This document shows positions 32,983-56,474 of a DNA stretch of 64,000 nucleotides, piece by piece. This stretch comes from a bacterium UBP13_UBA5359. Its GTDB lineage: Bacteria > UBP13 > UBA5359. The stretch's first letter is position 1, and each line of letters opens with the position of its first letter. The DNA lies in assembly GCA_002410925.1 (NCBI GenBank), contig DHPR01000012.1, forward strand, positions 146,643 through 210,642, written 5' to 3'. Under the pieces are notes generated by a model. The model saw only the letters and a program-made list of their open reading frames with translations. It was not told the origin of the DNA and did not search any database. The position numbers and the translations under genes were made by a program.

Positions 32983-34005
32983 TCACCGATTACGCAAGCG
33001 CCAGCCCTCGTCAAGCATAGTCAGATATTTCTCTATGGGAATATATGAGGCTATGCTGTTGCCGGAGCCCAGCGCGTATCCGCCCTCTGCGCCCACCTCT
33101 GTGACCAGCATCCCGGTATATGCCCGTATCTCTTCCTCCGTACTCCGGCAAAGCCTGTCCACATCGTAGCCACCCAGGATAGCGATCCTCTCTCCGTACA
33201 GCTTCCATGCCTCCGTAACGGGAAGGATAGAGTCCTCGTAGGAATGCTTGGCATCTATCTTCACCTCCTCGATGATCTCCTCCATCACCGGGGCAAGTTG
33301 TCCGCAGGAGTGCAGAATCACCGGCTTACCGGCGGCATGCCCTATCTCCGCCAGCTTCTTGTGCACGGGAAGTATATACTTCCTGAGATCGTCAGGTCTT
33401 AGCAACGGCTGGGTCTTGAAGCCCAGATCATCATGAACGACCACCGCCCCCACAATGTCGATCGAGGCCATATTGCGATACATGGCGGTGAATATATCCT
33501 CCAAACGGCTGCATACCGCCTGCACCAGATCCGGATCATCGATCAGCATAAAACAGAGCGGCTCAAAACCGATCAGGGATTGCAGACATTCAAAGAAACC
33601 GCTTAATCCGCTGTTGCAGGTGGCCATCATGCCTTCCGGCAATACCCGGGACACCTGATCGAATTCCGCGTATGAAACGGCATCCGTTGCCGGCCAGGGA
33701 TACTCCTCGAAGCTCTTCCTGTCACTTATCGGATATGGGTGAGAGCGATCAACGAGACTTCCCCGCGGCATATCCACCCTGCTCCACACAGGCAAACAAT
33801 CATACCCCGCTTTGTAATAGAACTCCACCGTATCAGCCGCATGTTCAATCCGCTTTCCCAGCACGCGTTCCTGGACGGGAATATCCACCAGCAGTTCATA
33901 GAACGGGATAAAATCCGGCCTGCCGTCACGCAGGAGAACACGTCTGAGTTGGTCAAAATCCGGTGCCGGTTTGATACATGTTTCCTCTAAAGATTGCAAG
34001 GGCAT
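32983..34005 (-). CDS. Uroporphyrinogen decarboxylase/MtaA-CmuA-like TIM-barrel protein
   Basis: PFYE, HDDLG, LHSCG, KHSYED, GYALGSGNSI; ATG 34005 follows GGAGGTG. Confidence 0.82.
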   Translation of the reverse strand: MPLQSLEETCIKPAPDFDQLRRVLLRDGRPDFIPFYELLVDIPVQERVLGKRIEHAADTVEFYYKAGYDCLPVWSRVDMPRGSLVDRSHPYPISDRKSFEEYPWPATDAVSYAEFDQVSRVLPEGMMATCNSGLSGFFECLQSLIGFEPLCFMLIDDPDLVQAVCSRLEDIFTAMYRNMASIDIVGAVVVHDDLGFKTQPLLRPDDLRKYILPVHKKLAEIGHAAGKPVILHSCGQLAPVMEEIIEEVKIDAKHSYEDSILPVTEAWKLYGERIAILGGYDVDRLCRSTEEEIRAYTGMLVTEVGAEGGYALGSGNSIASYIPIEKYLTMLDEGWRLRNR

Positions 34006-34022
34006 TCGATCACACCTCCACA

Positions 34023-35333
34023 TCAGGCAGCCCGACGCAGACTATAAGCGCCGGCATCGGCCGAAGGCTTACTGGCCTTCAGAGCTTCAAACATCATTTT
34101 GAAGATATCGGTATTATCCAAAACTTTGACCTTACCTCGTTCGAAATCGCTGATCTCCCTGGCGAGCTTCTCCACTATCTTGCTGCCGCTCCCCTGGCAG
34201 TATAGGTCCACCAGGCGATTGGTGTGACTAAACCATTTTCCGTCAGTACCCCAGCTTACCACCGGCAGCGTCCCCGCCGGGCCGGGCTTGACATCATGCA
34301 TATAGCCCGTATCATGATCTGCAGTAATGATCAATAGGTTCTCTTGCCAGCCGCCATGCTTTCCGATCCACTCCAGCACCGTGGCTACCGCTTCGTCGAA
34401 GCCCAAAGTTTCGCCTATGGACTGATTCAGATTATTAGCGTGGTTGGCAAAATCTATGGCTCCTCCTTCTACCAGCAGAACAAAACCTTTCTTCTGCTCC
34501 AATACGGATAACGCTCCCTGGACCATCTCTGCCAGCGCCGGCTGATCCGGGGAAACTTCGGATCCATCAGACAGGCGGTATTTCAGAAACTCTCCCTTAA
34601 ACAGCCCGAATACCTTAGTATGTTTAGCTTCTCCGATCAACGCTTTAAAATCTTCCCGGCTTTCAGCTAGTTTATAAGGAGTGGAACCGGACTTGAGCAA
34701 TACCCAGTCATCCTGAGACAGATAGGTATACTCCCGTCCCTTTCTAAACGCTTCCGGATGGCCGCCTCCCATGATAACATCGAGCTTTGATTCAAACAGC
34801 ATCTGCCCGGCAATGGCGGTATACCTGCCACGGCTGTCGACATGAGCACCGAAAGCTGCCGGGGTAGCATGGCAGAATGGAACGGTAGTAACAACGCCGG
34901 TTTTTAATCCCTTCTCTTGGGCTATCTCCATAATATTGACCAGCGGATTCTTCTGAAAATCGACTCCGATGGCGCCATCAAACGTCTTTACTCCCGTTGC
35001 CAGAGCCGTGGCCGCGGCTGCCGAATCCGTGGGCCTCCTTTTGGGATACTCTTTGTTGCCGCCATTCCAGCCGGGATCATAGCTCCCCTCGACGGAAAAG
35101 GTAGTGACATAGAGATGCTTCTTCACTCTTTCCATGGCCAGATAGCTTTGGCCGCCGAAAGCATGATATTCAGAGCCGAACTTGTAAGCTCCGGCAGCCT
35201 TTACCACATCCGGCCCCATGCCGTCTCCAATCATCAGGATGATATTCCTGGATGCGGCCAAACAGGGTGATATCGCTAACACTATGAACATAATCAACAA
35301 TGCGAACGTTGTTGCGTTTCTCTTAGCAAACAC
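34023..35333 (-). CDS. Secreted alkaline phosphatase (PhoA type)
   Basis: IGDGMG, TDSAAAATA, HATPA, EGGAIDFANH, TADHDTG; signal peptide. Confidence 0.93.
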   Translation of the reverse strand: MFAKRNATTFALLIMFIVLAISPCLAASRNIILMIGDGMGPDVVKAAGAYKFGSEYHAFGGQSYLAMERVKKHLYVTTFSVEGSYDPGWNGGNKEYPKRRPTDSAAAATALATGVKTFDGAIGVDFQKNPLVNIMEIAQEKGLKTGVVTTVPFCHATPAAFGAHVDSRGRYTAIAGQMLFESKLDVIMGGGHPEAFRKGREYTYLSQDDWVLLKSGSTPYKLAESREDFKALIGEAKHTKVFGLFKGEFLKYRLSDGSEVSPDQPALAEMVQGALSVLEQKKGFVLLVEGGAIDFANHANNLNQSIGETLGFDEAVATVLEWIGKHGGWQENLLIITADHDTGYMHDVKPGPAGTLPVVSWGTDGKWFSHTNRLVDLYCQGSGSKIVEKLAREISDFERGKVKVLDNTDIFKMMFEALKASKPSADAGAYSLRRAA

Positions 35334-35366
35334 TCTTATCCTTCCTCCTTCTCAACATTTCCGCAT

Positions 35367-38231
35367 TCACCATTTTCTGGGATTATCCTTTAATCCCTGG
35401 TAGATCCGTTCCGCTTCATCCACCTCTTTCAAATAGGGTGAGCAGAGGCTTTCCGGCCATTTCTCTTTCTGAGCTAGGCCAGTAATAGCCTTTCTCAGGC
35501 TGCTTATCCAGGTAAGTATATATTCGATATCCTCATCCGTAGGCTTGATGCTTTTTTTACCGACCTGAATATAGACGGGCGCGGTATGTGCCCAGTTGCC
35601 GAAGAACTCTCCTTGCCGGCCGTAGCATCTGACGGCCAGCCAGCCGGTGCCGTCAACTTGTTGGGTATAGCTAGTTCTAAATATTTTATCTTTGCTGCCA
35701 GGCGTAATTCTCTTTATCACTCTGCCGTTCATAATCACTTCTATCTTCTCCACCCCATAGAGATGGCCGGCTTCTATCTCGCATCGAACGCTGCCTCCGA
35801 CCTCAGGCAGATCAACGATGCTGCCCATATCTTGCCCATTAACATTGACAATAACAAACGGCCCGGTGGTCACAAATAGTCGCTGTGCCTTATATGCGTT
35901 GATTACTTTCTGCCAAGAAAGCTCTTTAAGCTTTGTATATGCCCGATAACCTCCCGGCGTAACTACGGTGGCCGGATTGTTAATGTATGTGTCCGTAGCT
36001 GCCGTTGCCGCCATCTTGAAACCGGCATTCAGGAAGCGATATCCGATCGGATTCTCTCCCTTGAAAGCGTATCTCCACAAATTAACCTTGCCGAGCGCCA
36101 CGGCTACCGGTAAACCCCGACAGGATTCTACAAAAACGGGTTTCTCAATGGGATATTGAATATCTTCGGCAAAAGTGGCCGCGCCCCCCTTGGCTTGAAG
36201 TGCGCTCAGAGCATCGATCTGCGCAAAGTATCCGGCTTTACCTGTATCGGCGTTAAGGCAGATAACATCCCCCAAGACTCTGCTGCCTACTTCCTGCCCG
36301 CTGCCGGCCAGGGTCTCATCGTCCAGCCGGACAGCCTTTTCGCTCATACCATCCACGATGTTAAACCAGTTCAGCCCTTCTGCCTGAAAGATTTTGAAGG
36401 CGTTGCCGATATTGTCGCCTGTCAGCAACATATCATAGCGTTTCTCTGTATGACCTATCGTTTGCAGTTCTTCATCCCCGCCATACCAGCCCATATCCGG
36501 CAGGTTAACCCATCTTTTCAGCTTGACGTCAAGTCTCTTTTTCTCTCCGTCACCTAATGTTAACTCTATCTTCTGAGGCTCGTATTCAAAGCCGCGCAGC
36601 AGAACTATATTATATTTTCCAGGCGGAAGCTTCATCTCAAAGTTACCGAAGGCATAGAACTGACCTCGTTTTTCATGGCCGTATGAAAAGCTATCTTCCG
36701 GGAAGAAATAAACGCCGCTGTCGTTATGAAGCATAGCTTTGACATTTATGGCTTTGCCTGTGCCGGCATCCGCAACGCTGCACTTAAGACCGGATGTGCA
36801 TCCCTGTAAGTATTTTTCATGCTCCGTCAATAGTTTAAGCTTGGCTATGGCGATATTGTCCTCATAATCCCGGCTGATCTCCGCCGGCGAAAGGGCATAA
36901 TTATAGAGCTTTACCTCTCTGATAAAGCCGGAAAACTGGTAATGTATGTCGGGAAAGGTAGCCAGCCCGCTGATCACCAAGGGCAAAGCGGCATAGTTAT
37001 AATCGCCCAGGGAGGGAGTATAGCTGATTTTACCGGTTACGTCCGCCTCTTTTACACCCTTGCCGTTAAGATAGAGCCTGGCTTTTCCCTGCCGGCCATC
37101 GAAAGAGAAACCGAGGTGATACCACTTCCCCTTCTCTATCAACGGGGCGGAGTATATCCGGCAGGGCTTTCTTATCCCTTTGTCCTCCAAATATAGTTCA
37201 AGGACCAGTTGCTTGTTGATGACGGAAAAGTTATAGCCGCTGTAAGTCGCCCTGCCTTTGCTGATGACCCCATTCGCTCCCAGAGGACTGGCCAGGTTCA
37301 CCCAGGCGACAAGGCTCATCCGGTCATCGAAATTGAGATAATCCTGATGCGGTATCTCTACTCTGGTCCGCTTGCCGTCGAACTCCAAACCGGCTGCGCC
37401 GTCGGCCTTGCTCCACAAACCGTTGACTATGCTGCCGTCGATACGCAGGGAAGACCTGTCGCGAGCTATATTCCCCTGGCCTTCATCAAGGGGAAAATAG
37501 GCGACAAGCTCTCTAGCGGATGGAGCCTTCTTGGCCATATTAACCGGAGAACTCTCACTCTTTATCTCTTCCTGGCTCAATGCACGCCCATATATCTTTA
37601 CCTCGTCGATAGCGCCGCGAAACGATCGTTTCTTTAAGCCGCCGCCGATCCTCAAGGGATCCTTATTTAAATCCATACTGCCTGAAACGCTCTTCTTACC
37701 GACGTTCTTCCCGTCTATGTAACCGTATAAGTCACTGCCGTCGTAGACCAGGGCCAGATGGTGCCAGTTATAAGGGGATACCTTACCGCTTATCTGGAAG
37801 GATTCCTTGCCGGCTGATATCATAAAGATAACCGCTGTCCCGTCCTTGTTGCTGAAAATGCCGTATGAGCCCAGATAGTTTGTGCCGGGCTTGCCTAAGA
37901 TATTTCTCCCGGCCAAGCCCGCTTCGACAGGCTCCGGCTTGACAAAGAGAGAGATGCTGAAAGCTCCGGCAGGATTGAGAGCATCGGCATCCGCTATTTC
38001 CAGATAATTGTCGATGCCGTTGCAGCCCAGCGCACTTCCCTTTATCCCCTCAACCTGTGCAGCTCCGTAAACCTTGCCGTTACTCTTGCTGGCAGAATTA
38101 TCAGGGCAAATGCCGTCCTTGCACTCATCAAAGCTCCAGTACCCCAGCGGGGCAAGGTTGTCTGCGTAGGCCATAGGCATAGATAGCAGCAACAGCATAA
38201 AGACCAGGATCGCCGATATCTTCTTGCTCAT
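35367..38231 (-). CDS. Secreted protein: two LamG-like domains plus a CehA/McbA (PHP-like) metallohydrolase-like domain
   Basis: Two WHH/WYH...YIDG/YLNG...F.G.I.EVK.Y..ALS repeats; RGFEYEP, GWYGGD, RLFVTTGP, AHTAPVY. Confidence 0.7.
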   Translation of the reverse strand: MSKKISAILVFMLLLLSMPMAYADNLAPLGYWSFDECKDGICPDNSASKSNGKVYGAAQVEGIKGSALGCNGIDNYLEIADADALNPAGAFSISLFVKPEPVEAGLAGRNILGKPGTNYLGSYGIFSNKDGTAVIFMISAGKESFQISGKVSPYNWHHLALVYDGSDLYGYIDGKNVGKKSVSGSMDLNKDPLRIGGGLKKRSFRGAIDEVKIYGRALSQEEIKSESSPVNMAKKAPSARELVAYFPLDEGQGNIARDRSSLRIDGSIVNGLWSKADGAAGLEFDGKRTRVEIPHQDYLNFDDRMSLVAWVNLASPLGANGVISKGRATYSGYNFSVINKQLVLELYLEDKGIRKPCRIYSAPLIEKGKWYHLGFSFDGRQGKARLYLNGKGVKEADVTGKISYTPSLGDYNYAALPLVISGLATFPDIHYQFSGFIREVKLYNYALSPAEISRDYEDNIAIAKLKLLTEHEKYLQGCTSGLKCSVADAGTGKAINVKAMLHNDSGVYFFPEDSFSYGHEKRGQFYAFGNFEMKLPPGKYNIVLLRGFEYEPQKIELTLGDGEKKRLDVKLKRWVNLPDMGWYGGDEELQTIGHTEKRYDMLLTGDNIGNAFKIFQAEGLNWFNIVDGMSEKAVRLDDETLAGSGQEVGSRVLGDVICLNADTGKAGYFAQIDALSALQAKGGAATFAEDIQYPIEKPVFVESCRGLPVAVALGKVNLWRYAFKGENPIGYRFLNAGFKMAATAATDTYINNPATVVTPGGYRAYTKLKELSWQKVINAYKAQRLFVTTGPFVIVNVNGQDMGSIVDLPEVGGSVRCEIEAGHLYGVEKIEVIMNGRVIKRITPGSKDKIFRTSYTQQVDGTGWLAVRCYGRQGEFFGNWAHTAPVYIQVGKKSIKPTDEDIEYILTWISSLRKAITGLAQKEKWPESLCSPYLKEVDEAERIYQGLKDNPRKW

Positions 38232-38304: not shown

Positions 38305-39585
38305 TCATTCCCTTCCCGCAAACTTCTGTCCTTTAACCGATAAATTGTGTACAGTGCTCTCTATATCCTGCTTTCCCAGAAGAAACAGCTCTGTTTCCGG
38401 TGAGAAAACGGTGCTGCTGAACTCATCGGCCCAGGTTACTTTAAGTATCGGCCGGGCATAGTATATGGAATCGATATAGACGCTGATATGCTCAGGGGGT
38501 GGTGTGCAGAACGTCTTCTTGGCCACCTCGAGGATAGGCGGTATGCAATTCCTCCCCTTGCCCATAATAGCGGTCCCCTCCGGTCCGCAGGCGAATTTCA
38601 GGAATTTGAAGGCTGCCTCTTTCACCTTGCTCTGGCTGGATATATGCAGCGTGCCGGTAGAGAAGGCGCTGACTCTCTTCCTGCCGGCCGCTGTCGGCAT
38701 GGGTGCCACATCCCAGGAGAAGGCTTTCACATCCTGCAAGGAGGACAGCATAAACGAGGGGGCGATAAACATCCCGATACGTCCGGTCATAAACATCTGT
38801 AACCCGTTCTTCAGCTTGTCCGCCTCTCCTCCGAGCTGTGCCAATGAGGGGACTGATTTGTCTACATTCTGCAACGTAAGTATGTATCGCAACCCCTCCC
38901 GCATCTCCCGGCTGTCGACCAGACAACGTTTTCCTTCCGGATCAAAGAGCTTCCCTCCAAGGCTCTCAACCACATCCATGGAGCCAGGCAGAAGCGCCCC
39001 ATACTGTACCAGCTTGCCTTCTTTCCTGACTGTGAGCTTCCTGGCGGTTGCCCGGAAATCATCCCAGGTCCAATTGCCGTCAGGATAGGGCAGATGGGCG
39101 GCATCAAAGATAGCTTTATTATATACTAATGCGTTGGTGCCGTAATAAATCGGCAAGCCGTAAATACCTCCGTTATAACGCAAGCCGTCCAGCAAGGCCG
39201 GGAAGTACTGTCCCAGGTCCACACCCTCCCTCTCAATGAACGGGCGCAGATCTATGACGGAGCTCTTCTTGACCAGCGGAGGCAGAATAGTGTCGCACCA
39301 GAAGAAAACATCCGGAGCCGTGCCGCCGGCTATCTCGACCTTTATTTTGTTAGGGCCGCCTTGCGTAGGCTCCAATTTTACGTGGACTTCATTTTGACTC
39401 TGATTAAAGGCATCCACCACTTGCTGATGCAGCTTCAACTGGGCGGGATAAACTTCCCAATTTTCATAACGGACCGTCACTCTCTTGCTTGCCTGACCGG
39501 AGCCTGAGCCGAGGTGTTTGCTGCAGCCTGCTGCCAACAGGACGCTAAAGATAGACCATATAATCAATATACGACGGATCGCCAT
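38305..39585 (-). CDS. Sugar ABC transporter substrate-binding lipoprotein
   Basis: Lipobox LAAGC; GTAPDVF, YGLP, YNKAIFD, WTWDDF. Confidence 0.92.
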   Translation of the reverse strand: MAIRRILIIWSIFSVLLAAGCSKHLGSGSGQASKRVTVRYENWEVYPAQLKLHQQVVDAFNQSQNEVHVKLEPTQGGPNKIKVEIAGGTAPDVFFWCDTILPPLVKKSSVIDLRPFIEREGVDLGQYFPALLDGLRYNGGIYGLPIYYGTNALVYNKAIFDAAHLPYPDGNWTWDDFRATARKLTVRKEGKLVQYGALLPGSMDVVESLGGKLFDPEGKRCLVDSREMREGLRYILTLQNVDKSVPSLAQLGGEADKLKNGLQMFMTGRIGMFIAPSFMLSSLQDVKAFSWDVAPMPTAAGRKRVSAFSTGTLHISSQSKVKEAAFKFLKFACGPEGTAIMGKGRNCIPPILEVAKKTFCTPPPEHISVYIDSIYYARPILKVTWADEFSSTVFSPETELFLLGKQDIESTVHNLSVKGQKFAGRE

Positions 39586-39636: not shown

Positions 39637-42411
39637 CTATTGCTTCTCGCCCAGACTTATGCCGTCCCATTCCGTAACCGAGCCCAATCCCTCTATCTCT
39701 ATCATCTTCAGGCTTTTGGGAATGGAGACGGCTGACAGTATATTTGTCAAATCCAACGAGACGTTAACCCATTCATTGTATGGTATAACCTCCTGCTGAA
39801 AGATTCGATTTCTCCAGACTATGCCGCTGATGTCTTCCCATGTCAGCCACACCACAAAGTCAGCGGCGCCACGCCGGACCTCGCCGACTTGCCTGAAAGT
39901 AAAGGTCAGCAGAGGATGCTTCAAAGGCTGAACATTCAATTCAGTTCCGTAAACTACCGCTCCTCCTTGGCAGGAGAGCGTGGCTGTCTTACCATCGCTG
40001 ACAAGATCTCCGCCTGAATAGTGCGTTCTCTTCCAATCACTGACATCGGAAAAATCTTCCTGCCAAAGCTCTCTTTTGAATTCCGCTCTCTTGTTCAAAT
40101 CTATTATGTCGGAGGCTGCTATCGCTTTCCGTTGAGGAAAAGCCTTCTCTTTGACGGTTATATTCTCTATGGCCGCTGCTACGGCACTGACCGTGGATGC
40201 ACTTGAGTAGATATCGTCTTTGAGCGACAGTAAAGGGGTCTCCAGCCAATTCCCCTCTATTCTCCTGTAACCGTCTACCAGCGCGCGGTCATCGACCGTT
40301 TTCCCCGTTGTCAAAGATACTTCCATCGTCCGCAAATAGAGATCCACACGCGGCCGGTAATAGTACTTTACCAACTCCAGGATATCTTTGCTGGGATAAT
40401 CTATCAGCCACTCTTTGCCGGCAAAGGTCAGCATGGAGTCTTTAATGGCTCTCTCATGGGAGGCGAAATCATGCCCACGCTGCAACTTCACCAATTCCCC
40501 CTTGAGCTGATAAGGCGGATAGGTGGCCAGAATATCCTCCAGGCTGTCCATAAGGAATTGAAGATGCGCTGCCTCTCGCTTGAAACCGGGCAGGTCTTTA
40601 GCCGCGTAACGAAGATTCAACTCCTGGAAATGACGATTGAAAAGAGAGGTGATGTACTGCCTGCTTATGTCCACCAGATCTCTGACATAGTAAGGATTGC
40701 CGGCCAGCCGGCCTCTCTCGGACAGGGCAAAAGTCAGGGCTTCTTTTAAGGCCCCCGTCTGGGCCGGCAGGAAGGAGTTCACCTGCTTGGCCATGTTGGT
40801 AAGGTAGATAGCTAGGAAGCCAGAACTGCTCAAGCGATGCTGATATAAGGCTTCAGAGCCGTTCATATCGCCATGGACAGCTTTGACCTGGTGATCCAGC
40901 GCCTTTTTCATCTTGGGATAGCTCTCTTTCCCGTACCGTTTTACGGCATACTCCTTGAAATATTCGCCCGTATCGACGGATAACGGATTCCAGGAAAGCC
41001 TGGCCAGCAGATCGAAATAGAGGGGGTTGTAATGGATTATCTCCGGACATATGTATATCCCCTGACAATTCCCGGCCTCACGATCGGCGGCGATACTCTT
41101 GATATCCCGGACGAGTGCCTTGATATTGCCCCCCAGATAATCATCTCCACCGTAAAGGCTGATAATGGAGAGTATCCAGTTCCTCCCTTCAAAGCCGTTG
41201 AACCTCTTATAATGGTAATCCCCCGGTATTTCCGGCTGGCTGGAATCGCAAACAATGGCACCCTCCAGCGGAACCCGCTGCAAAAACCGTTTCACATCGT
41301 CCTGCGGCCAGGGGGGACTGATAAACGGCCAGGTCCAGAACATCCAAACGCCGTCGGGATCTTCCGCGCGGATCATCTTCCATACGGACTCGGCAAACTT
41401 CAGCCTCAGCTCAGTAATCTTCTCTTCCGGCAAATCCATTATCTGCTGCTCGCCGTAAGGCGAAAGGAAGTATATGTTGCCGCTCCCGTACTTGCGCACC
41501 AGACCCTTGATGATTTCCCGGCCCCGTGTCATAAAGAGGGGGTCGCCCGGATGGAGAGCATGGTAAGGAGGATCGCCGCGCCAGCGCATTCTGACATAAT
41601 CGTGCTCTGGGTTTTTGGCCATGAAATCCTGGGTGACAAGGTCAAAACGGGCCACTTCACCCAGGAGCACCGGCTTTATGCCGCGCTTTTTAACCTCTTT
41701 AACTATCTCGTCCCTGGAGACGCGAAAGTTCCAGTTATCCTCGGGCACCATCAAAGCGTTCAGCTTCTTTTTAGCGGCCCAATCTATCTCTTTGATCCAA
41801 TCGTTTATATCCCAGGTCCTGGTGCTGTAACCGAACGGGCACTCCTGCATATAGACCCGGCTGCCGAAACGCGGCCTCTCGGCCACGGCTATCCGGGTAA
41901 CGGCCAGACTATCCCCCCCGGCCGGGACTCTGTCTCCCTCCCAGAAGAACCCTACCCCTGCATACTTCTCCAGAAAATGGTACACGGCATAGAGCGTGCC
42001 TCTGTCCTCTGAGCCGCCGATAACCAGGAAGTTCTTCCCGTCCGCAGAAACCGTTTGGATAATAAAGCCGTCCAGCCCCGGATAATCGGATGACAGCCTG
42101 ATCAGGCCTTTGTCAACAAGGCCGGCGATCTTTGGGTTGGTTTCCCGGCGCCCTATGAGAATAACCTCGGTTTTCTTCACCGCCTCCGACTTTTTCACCA
42201 CTTCAAGCTCTGCTCCGCTGAGCATTTTCACGTATTTGGACAATTCGGCCGCCGCATGTTCTTCAACCGAGGTGGCGTTAGCCCCCAACAGAATCGTTGC
42301 TTCAGGGTCGCCATGCCTGGCCAAGGAGAAACAGAAGCCGCTTTGCGCATAGAATAACACCATTGCATAGCTGGCTATAAGGCAGAACAATCTCTTTTTC
42401 ATCCGATTCAT
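39637..42411 (-). CDS. Divergent GH89-like (alpha-N-acetylglucosaminidase-like) secreted protein
   Basis: Signal peptide; GH67/20-like N-domain (RGTLYAVYHFLE); C.FGYS..W...DW.KEIDW; PYGE and CPE acidic motifs; DLVDISRQ; YYRPR. Confidence 0.65.
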   Translation of the reverse strand: MNRMKKRLFCLIASYAMVLFYAQSGFCFSLARHGDPEATILLGANATSVEEHAAAELSKYVKMLSGAELEVVKKSEAVKKTEVILIGRRETNPKIAGLVDKGLIRLSSDYPGLDGFIIQTVSADGKNFLVIGGSEDRGTLYAVYHFLEKYAGVGFFWEGDRVPAGGDSLAVTRIAVAERPRFGSRVYMQECPFGYSTRTWDINDWIKEIDWAAKKKLNALMVPEDNWNFRVSRDEIVKEVKKRGIKPVLLGEVARFDLVTQDFMAKNPEHDYVRMRWRGDPPYHALHPGDPLFMTRGREIIKGLVRKYGSGNIYFLSPYGEQQIMDLPEEKITELRLKFAESVWKMIRAEDPDGVWMFWTWPFISPPWPQDDVKRFLQRVPLEGAIVCDSSQPEIPGDYHYKRFNGFEGRNWILSIISLYGGDDYLGGNIKALVRDIKSIAADREAGNCQGIYICPEIIHYNPLYFDLLARLSWNPLSVDTGEYFKEYAVKRYGKESYPKMKKALDHQVKAVHGDMNGSEALYQHRLSSSGFLAIYLTNMAKQVNSFLPAQTGALKEALTFALSERGRLAGNPYYVRDLVDISRQYITSLFNRHFQELNLRYAAKDLPGFKREAAHLQFLMDSLEDILATYPPYQLKGELVKLQRGHDFASHERAIKDSMLTFAGKEWLIDYPSKDILELVKYYYRPRVDLYLRTMEVSLTTGKTVDDRALVDGYRRIEGNWLETPLLSLKDDIYSSASTVSAVAAAIENITVKEKAFPQRKAIAASDIIDLNKRAEFKRELWQEDFSDVSDWKRTHYSGGDLVSDGKTATLSCQGGAVVYGTELNVQPLKHPLLTFTFRQVGEVRRGAADFVVWLTWEDISGIVWRNRIFQQEVIPYNEWVNVSLDLTNILSAVSIPKSLKMIEIEGLGSVTEWDGISLGEKQ

Positions 42412-45505: not shown

Positions 45506-45548
45506 ATTACCCCCTCCTGCCTCTTCTGTAATATTTATATTCTATTTT

Positions 45549-46676: not shown

Positions 46677-46683
46677 ATTGTAT

Positions 46684-46712: not shown

Positions 46713-46753
46713 GCATTTTTTAAACCGTTACCGGGCACTGCGACAAAGCCTTC

Positions 46754-48586: not shown

Positions 48587-49635
48587 TACCGGAGAAGTAT
48601 TTTTGTTGACTCTCTGATCATTAGCTTGGGCTTTACCAATATTCTTTTCTTTTTTTTGCCTTCATCGCGTTCCAGCAACAGCTTCATTCCGGTACATCCC
48701 ACCTCTTCCAGCTGTTGCTTGACAACCGTGAGCGGAACGGACATCTGTTCCGCCAGATCTACCTCATCAAAACCGATAAAGGAGACATCTTCAGGGTAGG
48801 CTATATTATTTTTTTGCAATATCTTCAGGGTTGCAATTGTAGCGTCATAGCCATCCGTCAACAGCGCCGTAAAACGAGGTCCGTTAAGGCGCTCTTCAAG
48901 ATCACTTACAAGCGTAGTATAGCCCTCGGTCTCAATACCATATCTTTGGGCTGTTTTTAAAAAAGCGGAATATCTCTCTTTGCCGGAAAAGCTTATAGCC
49001 TTTGAAAAATCCGAATGAACATACAGTATCTGCCTGTGCCCCTGTTTCAGCAGATACTTCACAGCCGTAAAGATGCCATGCTCGTTATCACTGCACACTG
49101 ATTGTAATCCAAGCCATTTGTGATGCGCATCTATTACAACCACAGGTATGCCCAATTTCTTCACTTTTTCGGCGGCCTCCCTGCTGGGCATCACCAGCAG
49201 AAAACCGGATAGCGAGGGATCCACAACCATTGTATCGAAACTGGAATAAACCAGCAGATCTACCTGGCAGCCATTCTCACTGGCTACCGACATTACGCCT
49301 TCAACCATCTCTCTCATAAAGAAAGAGGAGGAAAAATCGGCATTGAAATGCACCAGCATGGCAAAACGATGTTTTTTATTTATCCTTGCAAGCTTATCAA
49401 CATCTATCTGTCCGGCAACAAAGGTTCCGTGGCGGGGACGCCGGGCAAGCAACCCTTCACGAACAAGCGCTTTCATAGTCAGTTGAACCGTTTTGTGACA
49501 CACCGAATACTTTTCCGCAAGCTGCATTGTTGACGGCAGCTTGCTTCCTGCGCGTATCCTGCCTGAAATTATATCGCTCTTTATCTTTTCCTTAAGCTGA
49601 ACATAAAGAGGCTGTCGCTTGTTCCTATCCAGCAA
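48586..49635 (-). CDS. GntR-wHTH + LacI-sensor regulator
   Basis: PLYVQLK...KLPST.QLA; GHRQI, PEDVSFIGFD, PLTVV, IRES. Confidence 0.9.
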   Translation of the reverse strand: MLDRNKRQPLYVQLKEKIKSDIISGRIRAGSKLPSTMQLAEKYSVCHKTVQLTMKALVREGLLARRPRHGTFVAGQIDVDKLARINKKHRFAMLVHFNADFSSSFFMREMVEGVMSVASENGCQVDLLVYSSFDTMVVDPSLSGFLLVMPSREAAEKVKKLGIPVVVIDAHHKWLGLQSVCSDNEHGIFTAVKYLLKQGHRQILYVHSDFSKAISFSGKERYSAFLKTAQRYGIETEGYTTLVSDLEERLNGPRFTALLTDGYDATIATLKILQKNNIAYPEDVSFIGFDEVDLAEQMSVPLTVVKQQLEEVGCTGMKLLLERDEGKKKKRILVKPKLMIRESTKILLR

Positions 49636-49691
49636 ATTCCTACCTCACAAAATAAGATAGCGCTTGCCCGCAAGGTCAGGCACTATACATA

Positions 49692-49720
49692 GTTATACCT
49701 TCTATAGACAGAAAGTGCAA
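49692..49720 (-). promoter_or_regulatory. SigA promoter of the regulator-oxidoreductase pair
   Basis: TTGCAC-17-TATAAC. Confidence 0.6.
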
Positions 49721-49758
49721 TTTTCAACCGCTCTGTTATCAACGCCGGAATCGAGAGC

Positions 49759-52482
49759 TTACTTCCCATGTCTTTCCGTAACCTTACCAGCGAAAGGAGC
49801 CGTCTCTATTTGAATTAATTTCACCGCCTGTCCGGGAATGGTGAGCCTTGCCTCTGCCTTGCCGAAGATACTCTCTTCGTTGGCCGTAAGATCTATAAAT
49901 CTACATTTCAAATGGCGATTCTTCAGGCTGAGAAGAATGCTCTTATCCGTGCTTCCCAGATTGGAAAGTACAACCAGATAATTGCTGCTCCGACCGTATA
50001 CACTAGCCTTGACTTCGCTCGCTCTTTCGCCGGAGAGCAGCACCGGATTATTCTTATCCCAGTAGGCAAACCATTCCGAATGCCCGACGCCAAACTTATC
50101 CAGAATACTCCAGATCTGGCTGATCTTGCCGAGATCATAGGCATTCCACCACATTTCAGGCCTGATAAGAGTATCGTGAAGCAATGTTAACGGCAGAACC
50201 GTATCAAACACCCATCCCGGCGGCTTTTTATAGAGAAGCATTTCAGCGGGCACTCCCCAGTTCTTGCCGGCAAACTCAGCGCAGAAGGCATCGCAAGGCA
50301 GGATATCCGATACCTTGTCCTCTGCCGGCCTGTTGGCGCCCCAGATCAGATCCCATGCCTCGCCATCCCAGTAAGAATCGGCATAAGCCGTTACGGGAGT
50401 AAGCGCAGCTCCCCAGGCAACATTGGCGTTTATATATCCTCCCCTTGATTTCACCACCTGATAAATCCTCTGTGCCATACGACGTGCAGCCAGTATGGGG
50501 TAAGTTCCCTTGATACTGCTGCCGTCGGGAGCCCAGTGCTTTCCGGGCGTCCAATAGCCACAGCCGTGCAAATAGTTGGTGCAGGGCGGATAAGGAACAT
50601 AAACAGCATCAAGATATACTCCGTCCACTCCGTATCTATCCATGGTCTCGGCAATGCCGGTGACTATTCTATCCTGCCATTCGCTCTTGCTGCAGTAACG
50701 GTAAGCATACTGCTCTAGCTGGTAACGGCTTCCCCAGCGAGCCTTGCCGGCCGGTCCGAAAGGTTGACCGGGAGGCTTGTTGAGAACTCGCTCTGCCATT
50801 TCTTCCCATTCAGGCGCCTTATCTGACATTTCAAAACCGAAATAAACTAGGATTTTAATGTTGCGCTTATGCGCTTCCCTTACCAGATTATCAAGAAGCT
50901 CCGGCTTTGAAGCACGGGGATAGCTTTGAATATCTGCCCAGTTCTGGTGGAAGATAATGGTATCAACACCCATTTCCGCCGCTCTGTCGAGAACACTGAC
51001 CTCAACATCCGTTTGGTACAAACGTACACCAGTTCCTACGGAAGTGTTCACAAAGGCTCCCCCCTGGCTGAGAAGCCCGCCTGCAGCCGTTTTACCGGTA
51101 CCATCTGCTCGAATGCTGAAATTATCTTCCAGCAACGCTTTGCCGTTCCCGGAATGCAGCGCCAGATGTGTGACGGTAAAACCACCGTTGCAGTAGGAAG
51201 ACATAAAATCAAAGGGATGAGTCCCCAGCATTATTCGCCCGTTCTCAAGGGATATTTCGGAACCGAAGAGTCCCCTGAACCCGTTCCTCTCTCCGGCAGG
51301 ACTGCCGTCAATCCGAATTTCAAGCTTCTCTCCCCAGGAAAGCTTTATTTCATGATACCGCTTCCCCTCCAGCTTTTTTCTGCCGTTGATAACAAGAATC
51401 GGCGCTCCATTTCTATATACTTCATACCGCAGCCCCCGGTCATCTACATTCCAGTATAATCTGGCCACATCCCCATTATGCAGAACTACGGCGAAAAGCT
51501 CTCGGCAGTAAGACCATCTAGGCGTATCCCGATTTATTACAGGATTCAACTCGAATTCAGGTCTGCACTTTATAACCGCTTCGCCCGACATCGGATCGAT
51601 ATTGCCTGCGGCAGGGTAAGTAAGATTCACAGCGGCCGGCATCTTTTCCATGTTGTAGAAGGCACAATGTATCATTTTTTTATACCTGTCTGCAGGTATC
51701 GGCTTGACAGGCGTCGCTTGCAGCCCAAAAGAGTATGTAACCGGCTGATTAGGAGAGAATGCCTGATCTATCATCTTGATTCGGAGAATGGTCTCTTTTT
51801 TACCAGGGATCACTTCTATCGCCCGGCTCTTATTTCTATTGTACCAATGCTGATCAGACTCTGCCATCCAGCTTATGCCGCCCTCTTCCCAGCCTATCCA
51901 GGCCAATCCCGTATATGGAGCGGCTATCCCCTTCTTCGGAATAGCTCTGCCGGCCTTGGGCCAGAAATTGTACAGCCCGGCAATTTCGCTTTTTACCGGT
52001 ATATCAAGTGTGACCTTATCGAGTGTCAGTGCTCTTTTGGGAGAGATGGTAAGCTTTATCCAGATAAGGCCGTCATAATGAATATCAGCCTTACCTGCCA
52101 GCCGTAAAACGCTGGATTGGGATTCCGACGATAACGAAACAGAGGAGGGAGTTTTCTTTGTCATGGTAACTTCTGCCCCGGTTAAGCGTTGGCGCTCTCC
52201 CTCTACCACCACCTGCAGATCTATCGGCCGTGAGAGAATACTGCGGCCGGCCGTAATAATTCGACCAGGGAGCACGCTATCGATAAAACTATACTGTCGC
52301 GCCCAGGCTTTAACATTTATGCCGGCTGAATCTGCATCAGTCTGCAATGCTGTCCAGGGTGGCATGACATCGTTCGTCAAACCGATTTTTGATCCTACCC
52401 ATGTACTCTCTGCAGATACGGAATAGAGCCCCAGCAAAGATATCAGGCAAATTCCCGCCATAACTGTTAAAATTCTGCGCAC
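49759..52482 (-). CDS. DUF6067-like secreted putative glycoside hydrolase with an internal LamG-like insertion
   Basis: PPWT.L, YDG, FGLQATP, YFGFE, DGVYLD, C-x4-HGCGY, WDGE; GTG 52482 follows AGGAGG. Confidence 0.65.
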   Translation of the reverse strand: MRRILTVMAGICLISLLGLYSVSAESTWVGSKIGLTNDVMPPWTALQTDADSAGINVKAWARQYSFIDSVLPGRIITAGRSILSRPIDLQVVVEGERQRLTGAEVTMTKKTPSSVSLSSESQSSVLRLAGKADIHYDGLIWIKLTISPKRALTLDKVTLDIPVKSEIAGLYNFWPKAGRAIPKKGIAAPYTGLAWIGWEEGGISWMAESDQHWYNRNKSRAIEVIPGKKETILRIKMIDQAFSPNQPVTYSFGLQATPVKPIPADRYKKMIHCAFYNMEKMPAAVNLTYPAAGNIDPMSGEAVIKCRPEFELNPVINRDTPRWSYCRELFAVVLHNGDVARLYWNVDDRGLRYEVYRNGAPILVINGRKKLEGKRYHEIKLSWGEKLEIRIDGSPAGERNGFRGLFGSEISLENGRIMLGTHPFDFMSSYCNGGFTVTHLALHSGNGKALLEDNFSIRADGTGKTAAGGLLSQGGAFVNTSVGTGVRLYQTDVEVSVLDRAAEMGVDTIIFHQNWADIQSYPRASKPELLDNLVREAHKRNIKILVYFGFEMSDKAPEWEEMAERVLNKPPGQPFGPAGKARWGSRYQLEQYAYRYCSKSEWQDRIVTGIAETMDRYGVDGVYLDAVYVPYPPCTNYLHGCGYWTPGKHWAPDGSSIKGTYPILAARRMAQRIYQVVKSRGGYINANVAWGAALTPVTAYADSYWDGEAWDLIWGANRPAEDKVSDILPCDAFCAEFAGKNWGVPAEMLLYKKPPGWVFDTVLPLTLLHDTLIRPEMWWNAYDLGKISQIWSILDKFGVGHSEWFAYWDKNNPVLLSGERASEVKASVYGRSSNYLVVLSNLGSTDKSILLSLKNRHLKCRFIDLTANEESIFGKAEARLTIPGQAVKLIQIETAPFAGKVTERHGK

Positions 52483-52492
52483 GTTATACCTC

Positions 52493-55400
52493 CTATTCGA
52501 TAATGAAGAGAGCAAAATCTGCCTCTTCCAGATGGGCTTTAAAACGATTATTATTAAATGCCGTCTTGGCGCCGGTAAGCACATTATGAATGCGCCGAGG
52601 AGCAAATCCATACGCTTTACTCTTCAGCTCCACAGCGATCTCTCCCGGCTTGCCGAAATTGGATAATACCATCAGTACCTTGGAATCCCTTACATAAAGG
52701 CTGGCATAAGCATCCGTACGCTCGATAGAGACGTAATCATCTGCAAGCCAGTATGGAACCCAGCGTGAAGCCTGTGCTCCGAAATCGGCAAAGATCTTCC
52801 ATATAGAACCATACCATTTGGAGCCGACATTCTGAGGCCTGACGGTTACGTCATGCAAAAGAGAGATAGCCATCCCTTCCCTGGCATTATAGGCTATCAG
52901 TTGTGCCGGCAGCCCGATATTCTTTCCCATAAATTCCGCACGAAAAGCCGGCAACGACATTATGTTTTTAAACGGAATCTTGCCCCGCGAATGAAGACGT
53001 CCTGCGATCTGCTCTCCATCCCAGTAAGAGGAGGCAAAGGCCATTACCGGAGTTACAAGACAGCCTGACTGATGCACATCGACAAAGGCCTCATCGGCTC
53101 GAGCCGCTACATTCAAGGCATATATACGCCTCATCATCTCTCTGACAGCAAATATGGGAGCTGTCTGCCGCAACTGTCCTCTGTCATTTACATATCCGCA
53201 GCCGTGAATAAGCTTGTCACAGGGAAAAGGAACCGCCGTGGAATCCAGATAGACACCGTCAATATCATATTTTTCCAAGGCCCTGGATATAGCATCAACC
53301 AAAAAGTTGCTCCATATGGAATTATAACAGGCCTTGTATGCTTTCTGCGGAGGAACACGCCTTGTGTAAACAGTTTCATTCGGACGTATTACCTCATCAC
53401 GATAAGCAGTATATTCCGGAGCCAGGTCTGACAGTTCAAAGCCGAAGTAAAGCATCATCTTCATTTTACGGTCGTGTACAGCCTGTATCAAACTTTTGAG
53501 TCTCTCTTCTTCAGCTGTATCTCTATAGCTTTGTATCTCTGTCCAGCTTTCATGGAATACCAGTGTCTTATAGCCGTTCTTCTCCGCTGCTTCCAGCATA
53601 CTTTCATCTGCCGCTGGTTTGAAGAGAGACCCCGGTTGTGCATAGCCCTTATTCTCCATACCATAGAAGGCATGGTGGCATATCCTGTTTTCAAGCCATC
53701 CGGCAACAGCTGTTTTGCGTAGCGGCGTAGCTTGCAACCCGAATGTAAACACAACAGGGCATTCCAGGGTTATGGAATGATCGATAATGTTGATTCTTAA
53801 TAAAACTCTTTCTTTATCAGGTATGATCTCAATGGCCCGGCCGGTATCAAGAAGCCTAAAAGCCTCATCCGATTCCATAAACCATGTCAAGCCGCGATCT
53901 TCATCACCCAGATGAAGAATCCATTTAAAAGCACTCGTCCAGGCGGACTTCAGTTCACCTGAACCGGATGCTCCCGGCCAGTAATGAAAAAGTCCGGCGT
54001 GCTCTGCCTTAAGAGGAATCTCCAGGCTGAGGTTCTGCAAAGATATTCCTTTGCCGGCAGGGATCAACCTGATATCATAACGGCTCATTCCATCATATTC
54101 CAGAGTAGTCTTTATTTCGCAGGATAATTTGCCGTCGCTATGCTTGCCCAGCTGTATGTAACGCTCCGGTTTTTCCATAACGATAGATCTGGCAAAGGTG
54201 GTATCTGCGGAAGATAAACCGGATATCTTCATCTCTACCGGAGAGAAGAGCAGCTCCTTTCCTGCGGCTTCAATGCTTCTGGGAAGACCGTTGTCCTCAA
54301 AGATATAACTTCTGTTAAGGACCCTTAAAGCTTCACCCTCCCTAATCAAAGGAGTATAAGGCGGGAGAACTTTATCGGTTATGCCCGCTTTGCTTCCGGA
54401 CCAATCATCAGGATTTGCTACGCTTACAGAGAATTTTTCCTGTATCAGCAGGCGATCCTGGTTATCCAGCACCCTGGCCAAAAGATGGTATCGTCCCGGC
54501 GGACAGCCGGCGTTGATTAACCTGCTTGTGCCACGGTATACATCCCCTTTGAGCGTTAAAGGAATTATGCATTTTTCTACCGTTTTATCGGAGTTTACCG
54601 GTAGCAGACTCAGCTCCGCTCCGGATGCCTTTATCGTTGCCGGTATCCATATATCAACGGTCTTCTGAAACTCTTTCTCCTCGCACCGGGCAAGACGAAT
54701 GAATATTCGATTTTCTTTTCTGACAGCCTGTGAATAGTTAAAGATCTCTTGTGTGCCGGCTGTTCCGATTATATGCAGGTTGTATCTGTCGAAATCCGGA
54801 ATATCGCCTGCCGGTATTTTTTTAAAATCACCCGTCTCCAGGTTCACCTTATTTGAAAAGAGTATTTTTCCACCCTTGCTCAGCTTTATATCGAGAGACA
54901 CCGGCGCCAGCGCTTTGCCTGACAGTTCCAGTACACCACCCTGCACATCGCCCAGCGATAATAACTGCATTCCCTCGTTTTGAGTGAATCGCAGGCGATA
55001 AAATGCAGCTGAATCGGGTATGGCATGGCTCTTAACAGCTCCAAGAGAATAGCGTCGTATTTTTCCCTGCGCCTTGGTGCAGTACCGGCCCAGATTGAAG
55101 CTCCATATATCGCCGGGAGTTGCAGAGAGGCCGCCTAATTGATCAAAGGGTATCATATACTCCGCTTCCCAGCCAAAGTCCGTTCTGCGAGCTGCAAAAG
55201 ATACTCTGCCAGACCAACCGCTAGTTCCCCCGGCGGTTATCACCTTGCTGTTGACCATTCCGATAAATCTATATACGGTGCCGTTGGGAACCTGCAAAGC
55301 AACCTCGACGCTATTATCATCATACCAGGGATTTCGAGGCGGCAGATCGATAGCCTCATTATCATAACATCTGAAGGCTATATATATGCCCTGCCGGTCA

Positions 55401-55639
55401 TAGCACAGGAAAGCCACCGTAGCTCGATCAGAAACAGTTCCACCATTTATCTGCGTAAAACCACATATTGCTGCAGCATGGCTCCACTCGTTTTCATCAA
55501 CCGCACCATCAATCACCGGCAGGACATTGACCAAAGGCACTCCTATGATACGCTCATCTGCTGATACAACAGCTGCTACCGCCGATATGATAATCAGGGG
55601 CAACAGAAAAATTACAGCGCAAATCTTTAATCGTTGCAT
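52493..55639 (-). CDS. DUF6067-like secreted putative glycoside hydrolase with an N-terminal CBM9-like domain
   Basis: PVIDG..DENEW...YIAF...W.AE..IPF CBM9-like region; same catalytic-region motifs as the neighbouring gene; ATG 55639. Confidence 0.65.
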   Translation of the reverse strand: MQRLKICAVIFLLPLIIISAVAAVVSADERIIGVPLVNVLPVIDGAVDENEWSHAAAICGFTQINGGTVSDRATVAFLCYDRQGIYIAFRCYDNEAIDLPPRNPWYDDNSVEVALQVPNGTVYRFIGMVNSKVITAGGTSGWSGRVSFAARRTDFGWEAEYMIPFDQLGGLSATPGDIWSFNLGRYCTKAQGKIRRYSLGAVKSHAIPDSAAFYRLRFTQNEGMQLLSLGDVQGGVLELSGKALAPVSLDIKLSKGGKILFSNKVNLETGDFKKIPAGDIPDFDRYNLHIIGTAGTQEIFNYSQAVRKENRIFIRLARCEEKEFQKTVDIWIPATIKASGAELSLLPVNSDKTVEKCIIPLTLKGDVYRGTSRLINAGCPPGRYHLLARVLDNQDRLLIQEKFSVSVANPDDWSGSKAGITDKVLPPYTPLIREGEALRVLNRSYIFEDNGLPRSIEAAGKELLFSPVEMKISGLSSADTTFARSIVMEKPERYIQLGKHSDGKLSCEIKTTLEYDGMSRYDIRLIPAGKGISLQNLSLEIPLKAEHAGLFHYWPGASGSGELKSAWTSAFKWILHLGDEDRGLTWFMESDEAFRLLDTGRAIEIIPDKERVLLRINIIDHSITLECPVVFTFGLQATPLRKTAVAGWLENRICHHAFYGMENKGYAQPGSLFKPAADESMLEAAEKNGYKTLVFHESWTEIQSYRDTAEEERLKSLIQAVHDRKMKMMLYFGFELSDLAPEYTAYRDEVIRPNETVYTRRVPPQKAYKACYNSIWSNFLVDAISRALEKYDIDGVYLDSTAVPFPCDKLIHGCGYVNDRGQLRQTAPIFAVREMMRRIYALNVAARADEAFVDVHQSGCLVTPVMAFASSYWDGEQIAGRLHSRGKIPFKNIMSLPAFRAEFMGKNIGLPAQLIAYNAREGMAISLLHDVTVRPQNVGSKWYGSIWKIFADFGAQASRWVPYWLADDYVSIERTDAYASLYVRDSKVLMVLSNFGKPGEIAVELKSKAYGFAPRRIHNVLTGAKTAFNNNRFKAHLEEADFALFIIE

Positions 55640-55674
55640 AGAATGCCTCACACCCCTCTTGCTACAAAGTAGTC

Positions 55675-56361
55675 CTACAGGCCTGCTCGTCCCGGGCAGT
55701 TCGGATCGGTACACCACATGCCGGTTGGAGCATAGGGACCGGAGCTTCCGGTATAAGGAGTGGCCGTAGTTCTGCGATACTCCATAAACTTGACATGACC
55801 ATCGACAAAGAGATAGTTGGAAGAACTCGTGCCGGCATGCAGAGAAGCACTGGTGCCCATCTTGGACTTACTGTCGGATACGCAATATAGATAGCCGCCG
55901 CCGTTAGATCCTATATGCTGGCTGGAACTTATCCATGATTCCGCCAGAAGGATTGTTGCAGCCGGTAACGGAATATCGGTCATGGCCTTCCCGACAGATC
56001 CAGTATGGCCGATATTGTTGTCCACCATGGCATATGATCTATGGTACCCCACCGTCATGTTGCTGGAAGGACATACCAAAATACCATTATTATTCCCTGT
56101 GTATGAGCTTATCAGCTTGTTCCAGGGAGTAACCGGCACTGAGATCTTGGGAGGAAGAACTTCATCCCAATCCTGCGCATACATGCTGAAAGCCAGCCCA
56201 AGCTGCTTCAGGTTGCTCTGACAGGTAGCCTTTCTGGCATTCTCTCTGGCCCTGCCGAAAACAGGAAAGAGAATAGCCGCAAGGATTGCAATAATCGCAA
56301 TAACTACCAGCAATTCGATAAGCGTGAACCCCTCTCTCTTCACTTTTAAATGCCCCCTCAT
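55675..56361 (-). CDS. DUF1559 / prepilin-type protein with an H-X11-DG variant C-terminus
   Basis: [60 protein letters not shown]. Confidence 0.92.
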
Positions 56362-56446
56362 GTTTAATGACCTCCTTGTTATTGGCAGCTGATCATCAAA
56401 AATAGTGCCATTCTAGGTTTATATTGTTCTTATTCCTCAGGGTATA

Positions 56447-56474
56447 CTTCGACACCATCATAAAAGATTCCTTC
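56447..56474 (-). promoter_or_regulatory. SigH-like promoter of the second pilin operon
   Basis: Minus strand GAAGGAATC-N12-GTCGAAG. Confidence 0.5.

Follow-up and report, generated by a model that had tools for sequence, protein, structure and literature searches.

In Planctomycetota, Verrucomicrobiota, Lentisphaerota, Armatimonadota and several candidate phyla, proteins of the DUF1559/H-X9-DG type form one of the largest families without a known function. The accessible text of PMC4807772 places DUF1559 among the largest families of the Planctomycetes-Verrucomicrobia-Chlamydiae (PVC) group, and that of PMC10632474 counts 68 paralogues in P. limnophila. No function or genomic context for the family is given in the accessible parts of the literature found, in a search that covered neither subscription journals nor supplements. 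Two members of the family stand in the DNA described here, a 64,000-nucleotide (nt) stretch of a bacterium UBP13_UBA5359 (hereafter the window; G000:C40:146643-210642 of a 2.25-Mb assembly in 40 contigs, 98 % complete), in which positions 32983-56474 form a single minus-strand run of genes. Pilin A (55675-56361) is the first gene of the run's module A, and pilin B (44846-45505) follows a regulator in module B. We propose that DUF1559 genes have come to serve in this genome as leading structural genes of probable sugar-regulated operons, which encode exported proteins that degrade glycans.

Several described systems bear comparison with this arrangement. The major pilin of Caldicellulosiruptor bescii, CbPilA, is induced by xylan and binds xylan and cellulose, mediating attachment, and its type IV pilus (T4P) locus lies beside glycan-degrading genes (bioRxiv 10.1101/614800, in its accessible part); a polysaccharide-induced pilin that binds its own polymer is the shared feature. 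That organism is a monoderm with one pilus locus and one major pilin, whereas here some 37 pilin genes are dispersed among different operons away from the assembly genes of a diderm with secretins. In the Planctomycetes, a DUF1559-rich phylum with crateriform structures, gold-labelled dextran binds pili-like fibres and polymer uptake without SusC/SusD has been proposed (PMC5394234); the accessible text leaves the fibre protein unnamed, and the connection to DUF1559 made below is ours. The SusC/SusD polysaccharide utilization loci of Bacteroidota likewise bring together a regulator, proteins that bind glycan and exported glycoside hydrolases, and repeat this plan many times in a genome with different enzyme sets, but the loci described here contain no SusC-like receptor or SusD, their regulators are cytoplasmic GntR/LacI proteins, and import across the inner membrane probably uses shared ATP-binding cassette (ABC) permeases.

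The pseudopilin GspG of type II secretion systems (T2SSs) has the same leader as the window pilins and resembles them in its N-terminal helix and its small alpha-beta head. However, the GspG model TIGR01710 scores the two pilins at 40.8 and 35.4 bits, below its cut-off of 88.85 and over the N-terminal 55-60 residues only, PF08334 (T2SSG) does not match them at E <= 0.01, their genes lie outside the gsp operon, which is on contig C13, and their Cys pair and H-X9-DG end are specific to DUF1559. The DUF1559 family and pilus-mediated adhesion to polysaccharides are known already; a genome-wide arrangement that gives every glycanase operon a pilin of its own, for which no description was found in the same search, appears new. 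The paralogue expansion in this genome is large, as in Planctomycetes, but here the family consistently heads sugar-regulated glycanase operons, and the lineage is a very isolated one that belongs to neither of the groups, PVC and Armatimonadota, to which the matches were assigned by name.

A pilin-headed cassette repeated across the genome

Both window pilins are subunits of the type IV pilin family and, within it, members of the DUF1559/H-X9-DG group. PF07596 (DUF1559) matches pilin B with 64.2 bits and pilin A with 45.9 (cut-off 23.3), although the matches span only positions 2-46 and 2-36, respectively, of the 268 in the profile. The prepilin methylation motif of the class III signal sequence (PF07963, G|FTLIE) scores 36.8 and 35.7 bits in the two proteins against 21.2, TIGR02532 scores 31.9 and 32.9 against 16.3, and the H-X9-DG model TIGR04294 scores 28.3 and 20.6 against 19. 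By eye, the C-terminal motif occupies 12 residues in pilin B, with the canonical X9 spacing, and 14 in pilin A, where the spacing is X11. A protein search with DUF1559 gave at least 8000 scored candidates, of which the named ones are 'DUF1559' or 'prepilin-type' proteins from Armatimonadota and unclassified bacteria. An alignment of 95 homologues contains an invariant 14-residue helix segment and an invariant Cys50/Cys110 pair, and towards the C-terminus H192, N197 and D202-G203-H204 are conserved, with H192, D202, G203 and H204 invariant. The two pilins are 39 % identical overall (84/213) and about 85 % identical over residues 14-72, so that the shared N-terminal part noted in a preliminary description of this stretch holds; the middles, which it called unrelated, are very diverged yet keep framework positions such as CPS.

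The genome contains 37 matches to PF07596 alone, and a hidden Markov model (HMM) built from the paralogues and run over six-frame open reading frames (ORFs) yields 41 loci that score at least 80 bits, including three short fragments, two divergent members and one gene in a pilus cluster. With 2017 ORFs obtained by simple longest-ORF calling, the family makes up about 2 % of the total. The genes at positions -2 to +3 around each DUF1559 gene (161 proteins, plus the window genes) were scanned with Pfam; 40 random anchor genes, together with the genes two and four places further on from each, supplied a control of 115 proteins of at least 100 amino acids. The same-strand gene at -1 is a regulator in 23 of the 41 loci, compared with 4 of the 115 control proteins (Fisher p = 1e-12), and these 23 comprise 14 proteins that join a GntR helix-turn-helix (HTH) domain to a periplasmic-binding-protein-type (PBP-type) domain, four LacI, three AraC, one GntR-UTRA and one DeoR regulator. 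At +1, a glycoside hydrolase (GH), carbohydrate-binding module (CBM) or LamG domain is found in 18 of 38 loci, the other three ending at contig edges, as against 6 of 115 control proteins (Fisher p = 1.5e-8); the control count rises to seven with a sialate esterase, and two of the six are themselves in DUF1559-led loci. Extending the range to +1 to +3 brings a glycan-domain gene into 27 of the 38 loci.

The same association is seen when the census starts from the other members of the cassette. A regulator HMM (at least 75 bits) finds 37 PBP-type regulators, and the next gene is a DUF1559 gene after 18 of them, regulator B of the window included (binomial p = 4e-21 at a chance rate of 41/2017). 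Among 21 Laminin_G_3 ORFs, 15 have a DUF1559 gene on the same strand at most 10 kb upstream of them, and the downstream stretches so defined amount to 7.0 % of the genome (p = 2e-13). The distance from a pilin gene to its downstream neighbour is mostly between -59 and +99 nt, and by a hydrophobicity heuristic 17 of the 18 glycan-domain proteins at +1 have a signal-peptide-like N-terminus, basic and then hydrophobic. The cassette is therefore repeated through the genome far above chance, and the enrichment beside carbohydrate-active enzymes and sugar regulators that the preliminary description had proposed as its check is borne out. Two truncated DUF1559 genes that encode the helix only (G000:C17:1136-1393 and G000:C40:56190-56444; 85 and 84 amino acids) adjoin AraC regulators and are possibly decayed cassettes.

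Both window cassettes are kept in a second genome of the same genus (G001), in which the orthologue of pilin A is 92 % identical and in the same place, that of pilin B is 72 % identical, and those of the two large proteins of module A, giants A1 and A2, are 86 % and 87 % identical. Between the orthologues of pilin B and its downstream GH123-like gene, G001 has a gene for a 584-amino-acid protein that has no counterpart in the window (L162, G001:C11, 11308-13062). Two close genomes of the genus have 29 and 51 PF07596 matches; the other 28 relatives that were compared share only the domain with this organism, and one of the 28 has the DUF1559 family.

Pilin architecture and assembly machinery

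An AlphaFold2 model of pilin B (mean pLDDT 78.4) has a helix of about 50 residues (17-67) followed by a small head of four strands with poorly defined loops. Exhaustive alignment with VIA-align returned type IV pilins and pseudopilins as almost all of the top 20 matches, among them Thermus PilA4 (Z 5.7), ComP, EpsG, PilV, PilE and PulG. In a profile search of solved structures the pilins matched through the N-terminal helix alone, with no structure of a DUF1559 head found, and a search of the ESM Atlas with the head as query gave pilin/DUF1559-type clusters only.

The helix and the heads have evolved very differently. Over 528 pairs of paralogues the N-terminal 55 mature codons are 75 % identical, and at identical residues the third positions agree in only 44 %, so that the helix is conserved by purifying selection and not by recent gene conversion. 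Normalized similarity is 0.74 for the N-terminus, 0.09 for the heads, 0.12 for the regulators and 0.02 for the enzymes. Tryptophan and tyrosine together make up 10.2 % of the heads compared with 4.6 % of the proteome, the median head (9.9 %) lying above the 95th percentile of small proteins, and the heads are also rich in Ser, Thr, Asn and Gly and poor in charged residues. Glycan-binding surfaces often have such an aromatic-rich composition, and the heads may, on this weak compositional sign, bind glycans. A complex predicted from alignments of the pilin B head (40-219) and the mature GH123-like protein (38-766) scored 0.00 against a mark of 0.32, which speaks neither for nor against contact between the two.

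The genome encodes machinery that could process and assemble such pilins: two prepilin peptidases (Peptidase_A24), four T2SSF platform ORFs, four secretins and eight ORFs over the T2SSE cut-off, of which four are full-length ATPases of PilB/GspE/CpaF type and four are PilT-like. A type IVa pilus (T4aP) cluster at G000:C1:18843-31669 (loci L001 and L169) has the order pilB-pilT-pilC-pilD, a DUF1559-like pilin gene, two pilin-like genes, pilM-N-O, an ORF of 299 amino acids and pilQ. The pilin that adjoins pilD has the family helix, the W...PY...CPN framework and, by eye, the H-X9-DG end; our own HMM scores it at 117.6 bits, and hhalign gives a probability of 99.9 % over residues 1-96. The second pilin-like gene after pilD in this cluster encodes a leader of the form G|LSLLE. 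Contig C13 carries a canonical T2SS operon, gspE-F-G-H-I-J-K-L-M-D, with its own pseudopilins G-K (GspG, PF08334, 130.6 bits), and also a Tad-like set. There are also three tandem extra PilT-like genes, a separate secretin with an STN domain and, away from any pilus cluster, an orphan ATPase of PilB/MshE type that has an MshEN domain (G000:C27:5991-7733, L165) and adjoins a LytTR response regulator (8038-8838); this orphan ATPase might serve the dispersed pilins as an additional motor.

DUF1559 genes embedded in machines were also seen in the sample of other phyla described below, in the order PilT-PilB-PilC-DUF1559-pilin in a metagenome-assembled genome (MAG) of Omnitrophota and as DUF1559-secretin-PilM in a MAG of Kiritimatiellia. 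Three unrelated lineages thus have a family member where a T4P-type machine has its pilin, and this is our main reason for preferring a T4P machine to the T2SS as the client of the window pilins. The preliminary description had pictured each locus supplying a pilin to one shared T4P/T2SS-like machine. The DUF1559-like pilin beside pilD and the T4P-embedded genes of the two MAGs agree with the plugging of such pilins into a T4P-like machine, and a prepilin peptidase and assembly genes are present; the single set it expected is instead a T4aP cluster, a T2SS, a Tad-like set and extra ATPases and a secretin.

For import there is one TonB-dependent receptor (PF00593) in the genome, on contig C23, and SusD (PF07980) has no match in this 98 % complete assembly. 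Within 32983-56474 itself, Pfam searches of the ORFs revealed no TonB-dependent receptor, SusD or pilus assembly gene, as the preliminary description had stated. Lipoproteins of the SBP_bac_1 type are scattered in many DUF1559-led loci that have no permease themselves, and the genome has three BPD_transp_1 permease pairs, one of them beside a phosphate-type binding protein. Another pair is in the window at 27836-29736 on the minus strand, downstream of module B and outside the run, with no adjacent binding protein or ATPase gene. Since sugar-binding lipoproteins are many and permease pairs few, the products are probably imported via shared permeases, and the pair at 27836-29736 is likely to be a shared importer for the scattered lipoproteins.

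Proposed role of the pilins and competing explanations

The reading that we favour, though tentatively, is that these are sugar-induced, locus-specific pilins that are built into fibres by a shared T4aP machine and whose variable heads interact with glycan. A cytoplasmic GntR/LacI-type regulator would sense a breakdown product and the operon would be de-repressed, so that its own pilin would be made, presumably from the same transcript, alongside the Sec-exported enzymes. PilD would cleave and N-methylate the pilin, which would then join the shared machine (PilB, PilC, PilD and PilM-Q on C1, with PilT-type retraction ATPases) via the near-invariant N-terminal helix. The fibres would display the aromatic-rich head, which may bind the cognate glycan or keep the cell and its enzymes on it; retraction could draw the polymer to the envelope, where the enzymes would cut it, and the products would be taken in by the lipoprotein binding proteins and one of the two candidate sugar ABC permease pairs.

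A number of results weigh against this proposal. The C1 pilin, which ties the family to the T4aP cluster, is undetected by PF07596 and TIGR04294 and is assigned by our own HMM, hhalign and eye only, while the complete T2SS could be the actual client machine. The structural case is modest: VIA-align Z values do not exceed 5.7 anywhere (EpsG 4.9, PulG 4.0), a Foldseek search of the PDB with pilin B had zero matches at E <= 0.001, and most 10-residue blocks of the head between residues 91 and 190 have pLDDT values of 51-74 (151-160 reaches 91). Eleven of the 38 loci have no glycan domain in the three downstream genes. In Mantel tests on the 14 complete cassettes, head similarity does not follow enzyme similarity (Spearman r = -0.04, p = 0.60) or regulator similarity (r = 0.05, p = 0.38), so that substrate-matched heads, one head to one substrate, are unsupported; the regulator-enzyme comparison gave r = 0.22 (p = 0.07). 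The suggestion in the preliminary description that substrate-specific heads capture or import glycan in place of SusC/SusD is favoured indirectly by the aromatic-rich heads and by a genome with a single TonB-dependent receptor and no SusD match. We also know of no precedent for some 37 alternative pilins serving one machine.

The same caution comes from 79 loci sampled widely in other phyla, 64 of which have a callable DUF1559 ORF. Glycan domains were found in only four of 32 genes at +1 (GH92, heparinase II/III, CBM_4_9 and a sub-threshold GH106), with two further DUF4838 genes, and among 30 genes at -1 two are of LacI type and one has an FCD ligand-binding domain without a matched HTH. The FCD domain is typical of GntR-family regulators, and this sample has one more GntR-FCD gene, with a DUF1559 gene on either side. 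Other neighbours include cyclic di-GMP enzymes, glycosyltransferases and Wzy-like proteins, which rules out the cassette as a universal feature of DUF1559 genes. With so few glycan-related neighbours in the wide sample, the glycan link is best seen as a habit of some lineages and not as a property of the whole family.

The main competitor, which we consider unlikely, casts the window proteins as secretion pseudopilins: the GspG-like subunit of each operon would join the T2SS, or a T4P-like piston, and export the enzymes of that operon over the outer membrane, its head recognizing cargo and not glycan. A complete gsp cluster is at hand, but it already owns a full set of pseudopilins G-K, and the partial GspG matches of the N-termini, together with EpsG and PulG among the structural matches, have to be set against scores that fall short of the GspG cut-off and the absence of a T2SSG match. 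Pilin and cargo genes are adjacent and probably co-transcribed, and the signal-peptide-like enzymes at +1, as polymer degraders, would be expected outside the outer membrane and hence to need secretion; yet the 11 loci without a glycan domain have no recognizable exported glycanase nearby, and enzyme similarity is not tracked by head similarity. The machine-embedded DUF1559 genes, moreover, keep company with PilT, PilM and PilD, which are hallmarks of T4P.

Quite improbable, in our judgement, is a protein that forms no filament at all and stays anchored in the inner membrane by its helix after cleavage, acting as a periplasmic binder, scaffold or chaperone for oligosaccharides or for the enzymes of its operon. 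The Pfam label SBP_bac_10 hints at solute binding, the aromatic-rich heads would suit it, a metal or a ligand could be bound by the His/Asp/His residues conserved in the H-X9-DG end, and with orphan SBP_bac_1 lipoproteins and few permeases a periplasmic hand-off is plausible; classical binding proteins are, however, already encoded in the loci. The entire helix, with Glu5 and its amphipathic half, is under strong purifying selection, as filament packing and docking to the machine predict; this goes beyond the needs of a membrane anchor, and family members occupy the pilin slot in T4P clusters. Least probable is the absence of any glycan role: the pilins would serve the cell surface in general, in adhesion, in motility, in DNA uptake or in varying antigens or phage receptors, and control by sugar regulators would simply let the fibres vary with nutritional state. 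The order regulator, pilin, exported glycanase is too regular here for that, and is conserved between species, and 2 % of the genes in a 2.25-Mb genome argues for a part in the organism's main way of life, glycan degradation, even though most DUF1559 neighbours in the wide sample are non-glycan genes and heads and enzymes do not co-vary. The accessible text of PMC10632474 reports two of the 68 P. limnophila paralogues to be essential in the laboratory, which also fits a general role.

The proposal of sugar-induced pilins on a shared T4aP machine can be taken further, to a third design of diderm glycan-utilization locus, in which each locus contributes a sugar-induced pilin to one retractile machine, fibre composition follows the available glycans, capture and perhaps delivery by the fibres replaces SusC/SusD, and DUF1559 proteins are the subunits of the dextran-binding fibres of Planctomycetes. 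In this extended form we find it doubtful, and crateriform structures are, to our knowledge, not known for this lineage. If true, it would explain the SusC/SusD-independent 'selfish' uptake of polymers in PVC-like bacteria. More generally, this compact genome offers the clearest context for DUF1559 so far, with about 2 % of its ORFs in the family, half of the sugar regulators preceding a member and one member in the pilin slot of a T4aP cluster, and the linkage recasts a family of 'function unknown' as putative glycan-induced, pilus-borne adhesins or secretion adaptors. It bears on how polymers are reached by diderms that lack SusC/SusD or many TonB-dependent receptors, and if the heads do bind glycans they would constitute a large natural library of small lectin-like domains.

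Gene content of the two modules

All of the genes named in the preliminary description of 32983-56474 are present at the places it gave. Module A has, as claimed there, a pilin-like gene and two giants. Pilin A (228 amino acids; matched by the N_methyl, PF07596, TIGR02532 and TIGR04294 models) has a leader segment of 16 residues. In its upstream spacer (56362-56722) the preceding gene is followed by a terminator-like hairpin, and then come a by-eye -35/-10 pair and a strong Shine-Dalgarno sequence, AAGGAGG. The promoter that had been claimed for the module corresponds to a by-eye match, TTGCTG-18-TATGAT; a consensus promoter and terminator scan of 44600-57000, in which sites were no more frequent than in shuffled sequence and none fell in the pilin A spacer, does not support it. 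Giant A1 (52493-55717) is a GH123_N-type exported protein of 1074 amino acids as the longest ORF (PF19543, 95 bits, with weak GHL6/DUF6259 matches). It has a hydrophobic stretch at its N-terminus, and translation probably begins at the ATG near 55639, immediately 5' of that signal-peptide-like stretch. Giant A2 (49759-52611; 950 amino acids, start uncertain) is an exported paralogue of GH123_N/GHL6 type (PF19543, 107.5 bits; GHL6, DUF6259 and GHL10 below or near cut-off). PF19543 is presumably the family formerly named DUF6067, the name under which the giants were first described.

Two genes between the modules were absent from the preliminary description. One encodes a GntR-HTH plus Peripla_BP_3 regulator of 349 amino acids (48586-49635; Pfam, and 349.9 bits with our own regulator HMM), and the other an FAD-dependent oxidoreductase of 610 amino acids (46754-48586; PF12831, 305 bits).

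Module B agrees with its earlier gene list almost item for item by Pfam. Regulator B (45549-46712; 387 amino acids, GntR-HTH plus Peripla_BP_3) ends 43 nt upstream of pilin B, which has 219 amino acids and a leader segment of 19 residues and is recognized by Pfam and NCBIfam models. Then come an exported CBM_4_9 plus GH123-like protein (42446-44746; 766 amino acids) with Pfam matches near the cut-offs, a signal-peptide-like N-terminus and 4287 relatives at E <= 0.001 in a representative library; a GH89 alpha-N-acetylglucosaminidase-like protein (39637-42411; 924 amino acids) with NAGLU, NAGLU_C and GH67N domains; and a sugar-type solute-binding lipoprotein (38305-39585; 426 amino acids; SBP_bac_1 and SBP_bac_8, lipobox LLAAGC). 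The next gene (35367-38231) encodes a protein of 954 amino acids with two LamG domains and a CehA/McbA (PHP-type) metallohydrolase domain (Laminin_G_3, 150.9 bits; NF038032, 91.6 bits against a cut-off of 80). Residues 29-224 of this protein, in the LamG part, match NF052521 ('TafC family fimbrial protein') with 88 bits, far under the cut-off of 410, a hint that such LamG domains may occur on fimbrial proteins. The run ends with an alkaline phosphatase (34023-35333; 436 amino acids; PF00245, 206 bits) and a URO-D-like protein (32983-34023; 346 amino acids; PF01208, 62.9 bits).

Between pilin B and the GH123-like gene there is a perfect hairpin of 17-18 bp (44789-44827) that has no clear U-run and is unique in the genome; RNAfold gives -43.6 kcal/mol for the 105-nt spacer, and the element is possibly a partial terminator or stabilizes the mRNA. 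A comparable long stem lies 3' of a pilin gene at G000:C19:88640, and most other pilin spacers have none. A general attenuator 3' of the pilins was considered and rejected: strong stems occur in just two of about 20 folded spacers, and a post-pilin hairpin is therefore no rule of the family. An Rfam scan of 32000-57500 matched zero families.

Genes for URO-D-like proteins and PF12831 FAD-oxidoreductases recur in glycan loci, not only at 32983-34023 and 46754-48586 in the window but also at L025:7516-8616, L024:7352-8746 and L101:2019-3269, and an Armatimonadota MAG has a URO-D-like gene 3' of a DUF1559 gene. The random control sample also included a phage capsid family gene (G000:C23:87122-88033, L035), and contig C23 thus carries a prophage or phage remnant.

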